From: Chlamydiia bacterium | Lineage (GTDB): Bacteria; Chlamydiota; Chlamydiia; Chlamydiales; Rhabdochlamydiaceae | NCBI GenBank assembly: GCA_963804085.1 | Contig: CAWDOQ010000019.1 | Coordinates: 256,001 to 320,000, forward strand | Direction: 5' to 3' | Length of the DNA: 64,000 nt | Position numbers: made by a program | In this document: one piece after another, positions 33,001-36,000 of the stretch | Numbering within the stretch: position 1 is the stretch's first letter | How the letters are laid out: every line of letters starts with the position of its first letter

Positions 33001-36000
33001 CGAGTCACTTGGGAGATGAGCTTATCGTCGATCATCCAAAGTTTCTGCATAAGCGCAAAAATCCGAGCTTTGAGGCGATCGATCTTTTTACCTCTTATCA
33101 ATTCAATCGACACCTGCGCGGCTATTTCGGTCCGGGCGTGATTATCCATAGCGATACATCTTTTCCTATGAAGACTTTTTATTTCGAGTATGGTCTGGAG
33201 CTGCGTATCTTTGGAACGAAGTTGGATTATCACCGTCTTTACGGCACTCCATTTCTTGCTGCACATTTTACAAATTGGCAGGTGCGTAACTGGGGGATGG
33301 ATTCTACCTTCAAGCTGGGATATGAGCTTAGCAAGATGCAAGGGGTGGGTCGCAAGATGCGTGTCTATGCGGACTACCACACTGGCTACTCGTATGAGGG
33401 GCAATTCTTCAAGCGTCCTGTCGACTATTGGGAAGCTGGTTTATCGTGGGGTTGGTAGACCTCTTTCGAAATTCCATTCACCCGCTAAAACCGCCCTTTT
33501 TGCTCTGGTTTTTATCGCACCTCCTCACCGACCTATTCAGGTCGCCTCGTCAGCGCGATCCGAGTCAGCAAGCTGACTCTAAAAACCAGAGAAAAAACCT
33601 TCGATTTTATCGGGCAAAGCGAATTTCGAAAGCGGTCTAGCTGCTAACAAACCCTTCTTTGTAGACGGGGCCATTTCTTCCAATGGGGAGTGTTCCCGAA
33701 AAGAACTGGCGGTAGATATTCAAGCCTTGCTGAGCACTTTGCACAGAGAAAAAGCAGTTGCTCACCCATTCGGATCCTGCGATTGTTCCGGCGTCTAAGT
33801 TGCATTGAAAGCAGGATGTAATCTTCTTTCTCCAGTACTCCTCTTCGCCAAAGAGAAGGATGGGGAGTGCGGGTGTGGAGCCGACTTTTCTGCGCACCTG
33901 TTCTAGCTCATATTCAAAATCTGTTCCAATTCCGCCCATAAGAAAAATAGGAAAGTCTAAGTTGAACTCTGCTTGCCGCTCGACTAGGCGGTCTAAGCGG
34001 TAGGTCATTTTTGCTTCGATGTAGGGATTGGGCTTCTGCTCGGTGGGGATGACGGAGTCTGGTTTTGCGCGAAAGTCTACGATGTTGGCACAGGAAAGAA
34101 TGTTCAGCGACTGCGCAACGCGGTTGCCAAGCTCCATCACTCCGGGGCCGCCGCCCGTGACAAGAGCAAGCGGAGTTGTTTTGTTAAAATGGGGGTGGTT
34201 CAACTCTTCGCGCATCCGAAGAAGATTTTGAAAAAGGCTGGTCAGCTCTTTCTCAAAGTTTGCTCCCGGTATGATGTGCGATCCATAAACGCCAAAGGTC
34301 ACCGCTTTCATGAAGGTGCTCACAAGCGAAAGCGGTACAAACATACCGCAATCTTTCTCCGGCTTGGGAACATATTCCAAGATTTTTCCAGATGATTTGT
34401 CCACCCAAAAAACGGGGATCGCAAATTTGGCAAGGTCGAGCAGCATCGAGCGGTCTTCGTGAGAAAAGTAGTCGCCGGAAGAGTAGGAGGGGTACTCAAA
34501 ATAGATGCCTTTTAGCTTTTTTTGCACAAGGTCGGAGATGAGCATCTTTTTAAGAAGAGGGGAGGGGAAGTAGCGGGTGAGTAGGACGCCTTCGCTTGTG
34601 ATCTCATCATTTTGTATGCTCTTCAAAAAGGGGTAGCTCGGCTGCTGCTCGATGTAGCGTTCTACTAAATGTGACTGCTCTTTAGGGTGGATCAGGCCGG
34701 GAAATTCGGTTTTAACGGGCTTGCGCGCGATCCAATCGCTCTCTTTAAGATGCATTAGCTGCTCGCCTTTTACCACAAAGACGGCGCAGTGAAGAGCAGG
34801 GGTAGAAGGCGCTGTCTGAAAGGCTTGAAAGAGGCAGACGGGATCTTCGAGGCAGGTCTGCAGCTGGTCGCGATCGGAAAAGAAGACGTATTCGCGGTGC
34901 GGCTCAAGCGTGTAGAACTCAAGGGGAATAGTTGTAAGCTCCTCTTTGGAATTACCGAAGAGCTCGTAGATATCGCCAGAAGCTGCTGTCGTCGGATCGA
35001 GTATCGTAGCGCTGGTGTGCTGCACTCCCTTTGGTAAAAGCGAGTTTACGACATGGCCAAAGGCTGTGCGGACGTGCAAAGGTGAAGTGCGCACGAGGAG
35101 GAGCTCGCCTGGCTGCACATTTTTCTTTTCGTCACTCATCCAGCGCTGCTCTAACTTTAAAAGGGCGCGCGTGCTGATTTCCGGATAGTGGAGAGCTTGT
35201 GCAAGTAGATGCAATGCGCCTCGTATCGTCTTTTCATAGGCGAGCACCCCATTTTGCAATTTTAAAAAGGCAACAGTGCGCCCGTCGATGACTTCTAGGG
35301 GAAGGGTCTCTTCATCCACATCTTCTCCCAAAGAGAGCAGGGGGCCTCCTTGGCGGTCGCTTCTCCCCACCATGCGTAAAAGATAGTCGGGCTCGCGCAC
35401 GCGCCGTCTCGGATCGGCCGCAAAGAGTTTGCCGATGTAGGCGCCGGGTGTTAGAAGAGGCAGCACCTCTTTTGCAAGAGAGCCGAGGGCTACGAGTTTG
35501 CATTTGATTCTCGCTCGATGGTACTTGGGCTCCAGCAAAAACTCTGCATCTATGCTATTTACGCCGAGCTGCGCCAGTGTGCTCTTGAGGTTGAAGAGGA
35601 TGTGTTTGGTGTCTATGGAAAAACCTTTAAACGCAGGCGATATCGCCTCTATCGAGACCTCGACCTCACACTGGTCCGGAGAGAGACGTGCAATACGGGT
35701 GATCTTCCCATCGGGCGAGGCGAGGTCGTACGGAGCAAAGTGGAGATAGCTTTCCATAATTTGCTACACATAACATAAAGGTCTATTTTAGATCCGCAAA
35801 GGTGAGGTTGGGGTTTTGTTTCATCGTATACTGCTTTTCCCATTGAGAGGAGAAGAGTGCCATCGGCTTATCGTAGGCATCTTTTACGAGGATCACATGG
35901 GTAGGCTTTTGGAAAGATTTCATATCTCCTTCGATCCAGGAGCTGCACTGGTAGGGGAGTGAGGTTAAGGATGTCTCTACACCATACTCATCTGATAGAC

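Follow-up and report, generated by a model that had tools for sequence, protein, structure and literature searches.

The nucleotide 5'-monophosphate nucleosidase of Escherichia coli, PpnN (YgdH), carries a LOG catalytic domain (PF03641) together with accessory domains, including DUF4478 (PF14793), that are positioned to regulate it. According to the passage of bioRxiv 2025.04.13.648610 that treats these mutants, the substitutions M190A, R241A and E264A abolish the activity of PpnN or nearly so. The type-II LOG proteins of known structure (9US2, 5WQ3, 5ZI9 and 1WEK) are stand-alone proteins of 210-264 amino acids.

The tandem dCTP deaminases (PF06559 plus PF22569, as in Agrobacterium 2R9Q) contain two dUTPase-fold repeats per chain and split their motifs between them, repeat 1 holding motifs 2 and 4, and repeat 2 holding motif 3 and a glutamate. 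In the dCTP deaminase of E. coli, Dcd, S111 and R115 have a catalytic role, and R115 is essential for catalysis. Finally, a common fold unites the deaminase-like superfamilies (dCMP deaminase, RibD, TadA/ADAT, FdhD and PurH), and nucleotide binding is proposed as a common trait of bacterial deaminase-like folds in the relevant part of PMC3239186. Here we analyse a chlamydial gene whose product appears to join all three folds in a single chain.

The CT387-family gene and its nucleosidase domain

All coordinates refer to the window, a 64,000-nt stretch of contig CAWDOQ010000019.1 from a Chlamydiia bacterium (GCA_963804085.1). The gene lies at 33637-35757 on the minus strand; its ORF is confirmed and intact, and its 706 amino acids comprise a tandem DCD-like module, a deaminase-like domain and a LOG domain. 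Its assignment to the CT387 family also holds: AAC67984, which is CT387 in the passage of PMC1403754 that names it, shares a 90% cluster with one aligned ortholog, and a nearby block of HIT, MYG1 and HEAT genes matches the ct385-ct384 context, which fits this identity. The protein had been described as matching no family. This is correct for NCBIfam, but in Pfam there is a sub-threshold match to Lysine_decarbox/LOG (E 0.0098, 16.5 bits, cut-off 27). Non-chlamydial homologs pass the PF03641 cut-off, below which the window protein falls, and RefSeq already labels CT387 orthologs 'LOG family protein'.

Judged by its sequence, the C-terminal domain belongs to the LOG/PpnN nucleosidases, resembles type II, and retains the catalytic Met, Arg and Glu common to PpnN. 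It spans residues ~484-706 (33640-34308, minus strand), and not from residue ~430 as previously placed. The type-II structures listed above are its best sequence matches, both by phmmer (E 2.7e-8 to 9US2) and by a profile search (E 9e-8 to 5WQ3). They share with it the elements GGGPG, EQxxNPY, Arg and GGxGT..E, whereas the CT387 protein has about 480 extra N-terminal residues and carries the motif variant GGIGTDFE. The TGGGPGxM motif, T534-M541, is found at 34135-34158 (minus strand), with M541 as the likely equivalent of PpnN M190; the putative catalytic R594 and the G608-E615 motif, an xGGxGTDFE variant of PGGxGTxxE, are found at 33913-33978 (minus strand). The motif departs from the canonical one in having Asp-Phe for Leu-Glu/Asp at 613-614, a Gln after R594, and no leading Pro, which is retained only in the divergent bacterial subfamily described below and a few others. 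The place of PpnN Glu263 is taken by Phe in chlamydial and euglenozoan copies.

The family falls into three subfamilies (chlamydial, divergent bacterial and euglenozoan), which are ~25-35% identical. R594 and the GGxGTxxE residues had been called invariant. Among 50 chlamydial genomic orthologs this is true of G608, G609, G611 and E615 (50/50 each), but slightly too strong for R594 (49/50, lost in one) and for T612 (46/50, Ser in the other four). M541, R594, G608, G609, G611, T612, E615 and E619 are present in all 38 sequences of the euglenozoan clade, and the same residues are present in 19/19 divergent bacterial proteins, except for E619 (18/19). The LOG domain is the best conserved part of the protein in chlamydiae, with a mean column conservation of 0.69 versus 0.57-0.64, and in euglenozoans its value is 0.82 versus 0.58-0.71 for the other parts. 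A candidate ribose-binding residue, E573, which would correspond to PpnN E223 and PaLOG E74, is shared by 38/39 environmental chlamydiae and by 38/38 euglenozoans; the position is variable or gapped in 11 Chlamydiaceae, where the loop is variable or deleted, and is other than Glu in divergent bacteria. We also observe that the R594 region is decayed in Ca. Clavichlamydia.

The tandem DCD-like module and the deaminase-like domain

The survey's finding placed a single dUTPase-fold domain at residues 118-290. When the N-terminal part is folded alone (pLDDT 89 for residues 1-296), the fold is recovered with different boundaries: in the predicted model, residues 6-289 form two dUTPase-fold repeats in one chain. 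This model aligns with the tandem dCTP deaminase 2R9Q at Z 13.8 (rmsd 4.1, 234 residues aligned), a match that stands out from both the next family member (Z 8.9) and the first unrelated row (Z 5.0). Single-domain dCTP deaminases align to residues 118-292 with Z 8.5-8.9, and Foldseek yields E 2.1e-6. Identity to the tandem enzymes is 10%, without an HMM match; the CT387 module has no evident counterpart of their C-terminal motif, and it is fused to two further domains. When the module was compared by hhalign with a profile of nine DCD sequences, nothing significant emerged; PDB profile searches and Pfam scans of the two N-terminal parts (50 members each) found no known family, and ESM Atlas gave no usable match with residues 1-296.

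The Dcd motifs were mapped onto the module by weak profile alignments, in which E. coli Dcd 110-160 is paired with residues 58-113 (E 1.4e-3, 17% probability) and repeat 2 aligns to Dcd 81-144 at E 0.09, which is not significant by itself. Under this mapping, repeat 1 (residues ~1-135; 35353-35757, minus strand) would contain the equivalents of motifs 2 and 4, and the linker and repeat 2 (residues ~136-296; 34870-35352, minus strand) those of motif 3 and the Glu, the same division as in genuine tandem proteins. The motif-2 equivalent, N56-G65 (35563-35592, minus strand), has K58 for Dcd R110, S59 for S111, and Q63 in place of R115. The motif-4 equivalent, P104-F112 with K110, together with the conserved R118 that follows it (35404-35448, minus strand), supplies candidate phosphate-binding residues. 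The motif-3 equivalent, H247-P255, with E265 (34963-35019, minus strand), would correspond to Dcd H121, A124, D128, P129 and E138.

Conservation at these sites differs between the subfamilies. S59 and Q63 occur in 50/50 chlamydial orthologs, in 19/19 divergent bacterial proteins, and in 36/38 and 37/38 euglenozoan sequences, respectively; that is, the place of the catalytic Arg is occupied by Gln in all three groups. H247 (50/50) and E265 (49/50) are conserved in chlamydiae, and both in 19/19 divergent bacterial proteins, at a site mapped by the weaker alignment (E 0.09). In the euglenozoan clade position 247 is His in 0/38 and E265 is replaced by Val in 33/38, so that euglenozoans retain the basic/Ser/Gln half of the dCTP-deaminase site along with the LOG site, and have lost the His and Glu. 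D254 is found in 19/19 divergent bacteria, and position 254 is Gln in 26/50 chlamydial orthologs. Seventeen columns in residues 1-296 reach 90% conservation or more in each of the two bacterial subfamilies, and nine of them coincide with the mapped Dcd site or lie next to it (S59, Q63, G65, K110, R118, H247, A250, P255 and E265). From these residues, the module looks catalytically disabled as a dCTP deaminase. A non-catalytic module is also favoured by the separate Dcd encoded in this genome and by the separate dUTPase in 5/5 near-complete chlamydial genomes tested; against it, the conservation of H247 and E265 in bacteria is the pattern expected of an active site.

The middle domain (residues 297-483; 34309-34869, minus strand) adopts a deaminase-like fold when modelled alone (pLDDT 94), in agreement with the survey, and shares this fold with the deaminase-like superfamilies over residues ~300-465, the fold matches ending at ~452-464. 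The more specific label of dCMP deaminase is rejected: dCMP deaminases score Z 8.3-8.5, and RibD, Msd and FdhD tie with them within 1 Z unit (Z 8.0-8.5). Among the matches listed, 34 chains reach at least Z 5, nearly all of them deaminase-like; Foldseek gives E 8e-4, and no significant match came from hhalign with a single phage dCMP deaminase. The zinc motif, already reported as not evident, is confirmed to be so, since 65 chlamydial-type sequences have no conserved Cys or His at the site. Among these sequences H433 is the sole column of residues 297-483 with at least 50% Cys/His, and it lies away from the presumed zinc site. The likely place of the H/C-x-E motif reads Q372-P-S, and that of PCxxC reads P398-S-P-L-L-K; the latter place is P-S-x-x-x-K or P-R-W-D, and the cysteines of PCxxC are missing. 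Aligned by eye, the H/C-x-E place is QPS in the window protein; the divergent bacteria have CPE there, and most euglenozoans QCE.

ESM Atlas offered leads to PpnN DUF4478 (score 0.77, sub-0.9) and, at 0.75-0.77, to a Verrucomicrobiota cluster of 523 aa, which Pfam and fold searches do not support. DUF4478 matches 0/50 members at E<=1 in the Pfam scan and is absent among the best 50 fold matches listed for the middle domain. The accessory parts recognised in the CT387 protein, in contrast to PpnN, are the DCD-like tandem and the domain of deaminase-like fold.

The three-fold fusion proposed by the survey is supported. Given the Arg-to-Gln replacement in the dCTP-deaminase site, the loss of His and Glu in euglenozoans and the lack of zinc ligands, a single enzyme under regulation is a likelier reading of the protein than three enzymes.

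Distribution, gene neighbourhood and probable transfer

The gene had been described as a universal chlamydial one, and neither word is upheld. The family is matched in 184 of 200 scored chlamydial genomes at E<=1e-3, five of them weakly (E 1e-5 to 3e-4), which leaves 179/200; the gene was thus not found in ~10% of the genomes searched, and is near-core rather than universal. Of the 21 genomes with a negative or weak result, 20 show no match to an N-terminal profile either, and the remaining one has just a remnant of 44 codons that contains a stop. In one family (f14), 0/6 genomes have the gene. Outside chlamydiae, the whole architecture is present in 19 divergent proteins, those named being from non-chlamydial bacteria, and also in kinetoplastids (trypanosomes, Leishmania) and diplonemids; both occurrences are new. 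A published orthogroup includes 12/12 kinetoplastids and 0/3 euglenids. T. brucei Tb927.5.1460 is labelled 'possible lysine decarboxylase', and its orthology to the CT387 family is not established.

This distribution suggests that the common ancestor of kinetoplastids and diplonemids probably received the gene from a bacterium of chlamydial type. The tree test does not reject chlamydial monophyly (AU p 0.415) and so does not establish nesting of the euglenozoan clade inside chlamydiae; the proposed donor and direction of transfer are accordingly tentative.

In chlamydiae the conserved upstream neighbours are the divergently transcribed MYG1 exonuclease, HIT hydrolase and HEAT-repeat genes (the CT386-CT384 block, assigned by Pfam; 38839-41907, plus strand), from which the CT387 gene is separated in the window by prfC and an LRR-like ORF. 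Across 19 wide chlamydial loci, MYG1 lies upstream on the opposite strand in 18, HIT in 15 and HEAT in 16. The convergent downstream neighbour, a DUF1207 gene by Pfam (32187-33458, plus strand) that we take to be CT389, recurs in 11/19. An operon with prfC is rejected, for prfC adjoins the gene in 0/57 other loci (38 with only ~1.5-kb flanks). Five non-chlamydial loci show no common neighbourhood beyond a uracil-DNA glycosylase in two, and the chlamydial neighbours were not found there. The MYG1 and HIT neighbours fit the production of nucleoside monophosphates (NMPs); against this evidence, they are transcribed divergently rather than as an operon and do not recur in the five non-chlamydial loci.

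A proposed regulated nucleosidase and its alternatives

The role in nucleotide salvage suggested by the survey stands in part: the evidence supports a nucleosidase of LOG/PpnN type that is active and serves the salvage or turnover of nucleotides, although the two N-terminal folds look catalytically disabled. On balance we favour a cytoplasmic nucleotide 5'-monophosphate nucleosidase, allosterically tuned by pseudo-enzyme nucleotide sensors and probably acquired by the kinetoplastid-diplonemid ancestor from a chlamydia-type bacterium. By analogy with PpnN and LOG chemistry, the LOG domain would bind an NMP, with Arg594 holding the ribose hydroxyls and Glu615 activating water, and would release the free base and ribose-5-phosphate. 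The N-terminal module, presumably descended from a two-repeat dCTP deaminase, may form one composite nucleotide pocket from its two repeats; having lost the catalytic Arg (and, in euglenozoans, the His and Glu), the pocket would bind a (deoxy)nucleoside triphosphate without converting it. This pocket, perhaps together with the zinc-less deaminase-like domain, could then act as the allosteric sensor that sets nucleosidase activity, much as PpnN is controlled through its accessory domains by (p)ppGpp. Where nucleotides or bases are imported, such an enzyme might keep nucleotide pools in balance and reuse the NMPs that RNA turnover yields, and the transferred copy would have been kept in Euglenozoa as a mostly single-copy gene. 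A more specific version, in which a repurposed single-chain dCTP-deaminase pocket reads (d)NTP levels, so that two dead pyrimidine enzymes serve as a pool valve, near-core in chlamydiae and surviving, after one transfer from a chlamydia into the kinetoplastid-diplonemid ancestor, as a conserved but unnoticed component of nucleotide salvage in trypanosomes and Leishmania, we offer only tentatively.

It is important to weigh this proposal against other readings of the same protein. The LOG domain might belong to a house-cleaning enzyme for modified or damaged nucleotides (e.g. N6-substituted AMP that arises from tRNA turnover), its N-terminal modules being structural or RNA-binding rather than regulating through nucleotide pools. 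Among solved structures, the nearest in sequence are type-II LOGs whose deposited name is cytokinin riboside 5'-monophosphate phosphoribohydrolase; TDFE, an uncommon form of the motif, hints at a changed base pocket; MYG1 and HIT are neighbours; and the deaminase-fold matches include the RNA-binding TadA/ADAT/APOBEC domains. Nevertheless, the conserved residues of the N-terminal module cluster at the mapped nucleotide site in three subfamilies, which a pure scaffold would not need, and none of the eight homologs scanned exceeds 23 bits with the NCBIfam model for cytokinin LOG, whose cut-off is 300; we consider this reading unlikely. Less probable still is a multi-step enzyme, in which the bacterial module is an active, altered dCTP/CTP deaminase or dUTP pyrophosphatase, with K110 or R118 replacing the lost Arg, that feeds monophosphates to LOG. 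Both bacterial subfamilies retain S59, H247, A250, P255 and E265, the divergent one also D254, and no dUTPase was found in this genome, which is 91% complete. Against this stand the Gln at the Arg place throughout, the frequent Gln at position 254, the euglenozoan losses, and the separate Dcd and dUTPase genes noted above.

That the whole protein is a non-catalytic nucleotide-binding scaffold, LOG included, would accord with the deviations of the LOG motif, with the decay in Ca. Clavichlamydia, and with a transposon recovered 69 nt upstream of ct387 in C. trachomatis (in the pertinent part of PMC6686042); it is made improbable by the LOG site, whose Met, Arg, Thr and Glu are essentially invariant in all three subfamilies. 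Most improbable is that the protein is secreted by a type III system and breaks down nucleotides of the host. The portion of PMC11070183 concerned names CT_387 a 'potential T3SS effector' and cites no experiment for it, but the fold is predicted with confidence from residue ~10 onward (pLDDT 96 for residues 11-20), leaving little space for a disordered signal, and the gene shows housekeeping-like conservation and is retained in eukaryotes and non-chlamydial bacteria.

Our search of the open-access literature found no functional study of CT387, DIPPA_00557 or their family; the combination of a tandem dCTP-deaminase pseudo-enzyme, a zinc-less deaminase fold and LOG was not found in the literature searched, nor did a narrow search return a report of kinetoplastid-chlamydia transfer of the gene. 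The regulated-nucleosidase proposal provides a testable function both for the chlamydial signature protein CT387 and for a conserved trypanosomatid 'hypothetical protein'. The architecture suggests that LOG enzymes may be under allosteric control other than by (p)ppGpp, and the occurrence of the gene in both groups is a sign that it was transferred long ago between Euglenozoa and a bacterium of chlamydial type. Since chlamydiae and trypanosomatids both depend on outside nucleotides or purines, an unrecognised NMP-splitting step would change the maps of their nucleotide metabolism.

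The gene and its neighbourhood

The gene of interest is one intact open reading frame of 706 amino acids on the reverse strand (33637-35757). We assign it to the CT387 family because AAC67984, tabulated as CT387 among the Chlamydiales signature proteins (PMC1403754), falls within the 90% cluster of the ortholog at locus L059, and because gene order agrees. Among 19 wide loci, the opposite-strand upstream neighbours are MYG1 (18), HIT (15) and HEAT (16) genes, and DUF1207 lies downstream in 11. For C. trachomatis, the part of PMC6686042 that treats this region gives ct385 as a HIT hydrolase and ct386/ct387 as divergent. 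In the window, prfC (RF3, by Pfam) and a 415-aa frame with a weak LRR match separate our gene from MYG1 (35783-38707). Since prfC, which lies on the same strand and ends 25 bp upstream of the gene, adjoins it in none of 57 other loci, its position reflects a local insertion or rearrangement.

Elsewhere in the window, EF-Tu is split into two overlapping frames (293 and 104 aa; 44093-45276), and genes resembling a photolyase (26063-27434) and an epimerase (27437-28872) are broken up too, all three identified by eye; these are probably assembly indel errors. A YhcG-type PD-(D/E)XK nuclease gene (DUF1016_N and YhcG_C, by Pfam), typical of mobile DNA, lies at 30832-31887.

Domain anatomy and residue pattern

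The survey's finding of no NCBIfam match holds, while Pfam does contain a LOG match below threshold (PF03641, E 0.0098), and RefSeq already names the Chlamydia orthologs ‘LOG family protein’. The proposed LOG/PpnN domain is in fact visible from sequence alone: in a phmmer search of the PDB, residues 529-643 match four structures of type-II LOG proteins, 9US2 most strongly (E 2.7e-8). For the family, 50 genomic orthologs, 33-66% identical to our protein, were aligned.

Residues 1-296, folded alone (pLDDT 89), match the two-repeat Agrobacterium dCTP deaminase 2R9Q over residues 6-289 (Z 13.8, rmsd 4.1, 234 aligned; Foldseek E 2.1e-6). Because this alignment runs through as one unit, the model gives the N-terminal module as two dUTPase-fold repeats. 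Single-domain dCTP deaminases and dUTPases reach Z 5-8.9, the first unrelated row standing at Z 5.0, and cover only residues 118-292, which is why a single such fold had been reported at about 118-290; the fold stands when modelled alone, but as two repeats rather than one.

The middle domain (297-483, folded alone at pLDDT 94) matches, over residues ~300-465, dCMP deaminases (Z 8.3-8.5), RibD (8.4), Msd (8.0) and FdhD (8.0); nearly all of the 34 chains with Z of at least 5 are deaminase-like. A deaminase-like fold is credible in this model, and the Z values, being middling and tied, assign no subfamily, so that the earlier ‘dCMP’ label for residues ~305-458 is dropped. Among 65 chlamydial-type sequences, the only column at least half Cys or His is H433, which lies off the inferred zinc site. 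Read by eye, the H/C-x-E place is QPS in our protein, CPE in the divergent bacterial proteins and QCE in most euglenozoans (both described below), and the PCxxC place is free of cysteine in all three groups. We tested for the defining residues of zinc deaminases, did not find them, and rejected membership; judged by its residues, the middle domain would be a zinc-less deaminase relic. According to PMC3239186, non-catalytic deaminase-like folds such as FdhD probably have nucleotide binding in common.

In control tandem DCD proteins, motifs 1, 2 and 4 lie in repeat 1, and motif 3 and the Glu in repeat 2; our protein has the same arrangement. In hhalign, an 84-sequence profile compared with 11 single-domain Dcd sequences (E. 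coli numbering taken from locus L091) places K58, S59 and Q63 on Dcd R110, S111 and R115, and continues through PG-x-x-IG-K110-LF (E 1.4e-3, probability 17%). H247, A250, D254, P255 and E265 fall on H121, A124, D128, P129 and E138 (E 0.09, which is not significant by itself). Since the same profile found no match against 9 DCD sequences, this mapping is suggestive and relies on the structural match to 2R9Q. S111, R115 and E138 are catalytic in E. coli Dcd, where R115Q is reportedly inactive; E138 and H121 have been mutated there, according to PDB titles. The R115 place is Gln throughout our family, and dCTP deaminase membership was rejected on this defining residue.

Chlamydiae carry genuine enzymes of these kinds as well. 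Three Dcd-family matches occur elsewhere in the genome. A separate dUTPase is present in all five near-complete chlamydial genomes tested; none was found in the source genome (91% complete). On contig C8 of genome G000, a pair of neighbouring genes resembling Dcd (176 and 182 aa; L063:333-3276) lies between kinase-like and aminotransferase-like frames, identified by eye, possibly as a nucleoside-modification cluster; similar tandem pairs occur on Streptomyces and Rhizobium plasmids.

Distribution within and beyond the chlamydiae

We scored 200 of the phylum's 201 genomes for the ortholog (E<=1e-3). Matches occur in 184, five of them weak (1e-5 to 3e-4), and a true ortholog, in a few cases partial or split, in 179. 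The claim that the gene is universal in chlamydiae therefore fails: all six genomes of one family (f14) lack it. A profile of residues 1-296 has no match in 20 of the 21 genomes that scored negative or weak; the remaining one (G136, a single contig; L099) holds a 44-codon remnant with a stop. Because these genomes are 93-99% complete, single absences may be assembly gaps; absence across the whole of f14 points to loss. In C. trachomatis L2, PMC6686042 lists a transposon recovered 69 nt upstream of ct387, a weak hint that its full expression is dispensable in culture. The ortholog of Ca. Clavichlamydia salmonicola (L055:1459-3534) has a long branch and no longer keeps R594 or much of what is conserved in the middle domain, which suggests decay; in one Chlamydiaceae genome (G081; L060/L061) the gene is in two frames.

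Nor is the family confined to chlamydiae. Against 1.84 billion representatives, the residues 1-296 profile gave 117 matches (E<=1e-3), of which many are short fragments, and one match of 666 aa (~25% identity) led to 19 full-length divergent proteins. Most are without a name; those named include Leptospirales and Bacteroidales/Latescibacterota, and five loci lie in GTDB species genomes (two leptospiral bins, an Ignavibacteriales bin, a KSB1 bin and an unclassified bacterium). These proteins retain the canonical PGGxGTxEE, and all 19 retain R58, S59, Q63, G65, K110, R118, H247, A250, D254, P255 and E265. A uracil-DNA glycosylase gene lies near the homolog in two of the five loci; in one locus the homolog is followed directly by a GMP-synthase subunit, and one has a nicotinamide phosphoribosyltransferase close by (neighbouring features at L065:9253-9876, L067:8004-8612, L068:8017-8976 and L067:10559-11971).

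Homologs also occur in Diplonema papillatum (DIPPA_00557) and, at full length, in Leishmania, Trypanosoma, Phytomonas, Angomonas, Strigomonas, Novymonas, Porcisia, Leptomonas and Lotmaria. Most are named hypothetical; UniRef has ‘AMP nucleosidase’ once and ‘lysine decarboxylase’ a few times. With species codes as we interpret them, a supplement to PMC10161547 places the orthogroup of this gene, OG0005429 (‘hypothetical protein’), as a single copy in each of 12 of 12 kinetoplastids, in 3 of 4 diplonemids, and in none of 3 euglenids or 11 other eukaryotes; that paper's main text does not mention chlamydiae, and OG0005429 appears once across seven supplement files. The 38 euglenozoan sequences (14 named, the others placed by tree) form one clade (FastTree support 1.0). 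P0333, labelled Colponema vietnamica, nests within it and is probably a transcript of kinetoplastid prey.

All 38 retain the LOG site (M541, E573, R594, G608/609/611, T612, D613, F614, E615). In the N-terminal module, K/R58 is kept in 37, S59 in 36, Q63 in 37, and K/R110 and R118 in all 38; no sequence has His at 247, and 33 have Val in place of E265. The putative phosphate half of the pocket would thus persist after loss of the base-chemistry half, as one would expect for a binding site and not for an essential deaminase.

Euglenozoan and chlamydial copies share TDFE, C556 and Y586 and, with 29 of the 128 sequences aligned, cluster together, far from the other bacterial subfamily (branch ~6 changes per site). 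The tree nests the euglenozoan copies among those of chlamydiae; this nesting carries no starred support, and chlamydial monophyly is not rejected (AU test, p 0.415). Given a bacterial outgroup and the absence of the gene from euglenids, the simplest reading is that the ancestor of kinetoplastids and diplonemids took it from a chlamydia-type source, with donor and direction inferred.

A candidate regulated nucleosidase

For PpnN, bioRxiv 2025.04.13.648610 describes complete or almost complete loss of NMP cleavage in the M190A, R241A and E264A variants. Glu264 is the residue that activates water, the ribose is held by Arg241 and Glu223, and the accessory domains exert regulation via (p)ppGpp. 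E263A is only partly defective there, and our protein differs in having Phe at that place. PMC8234997 reviews how LOG enzymes use a conserved Arg and Glu in catalysis. Because our protein retains the LOG-site residues M541, R594, T612 and E615, we propose that it is an NMP nucleosidase.

The protein might instead clean modified NMPs, its N-terminal modules being structural, which we regard as doubtful. An altered but active deaminase or dUTPase in the N-terminal module, feeding the LOG domain, is unlikely, given the residue pattern expected of a binding site. We give little credence to a pure scaffold, set beside the retained catalytic residues, and still less to a secreted effector, even with CT_387 listed as a potential T3SS effector in the text and a supplement row of PMC11070183.

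Our searches of the open-access literature did not find the architecture, the pseudo-enzyme reading or the chlamydia-kinetoplastid distribution; relevant material could lie in subscription papers, in bioRxiv supplements or in the SLOG survey. By sequence and catalytic residues, the protein is a divergent LOG/PpnN family member that would work like PpnN and LOG. We lean, with modest confidence, towards an NMP nucleosidase whose two N-terminal pseudo-enzyme modules, from their folds and residue pattern and by analogy, would bind nucleotides and tune its activity.
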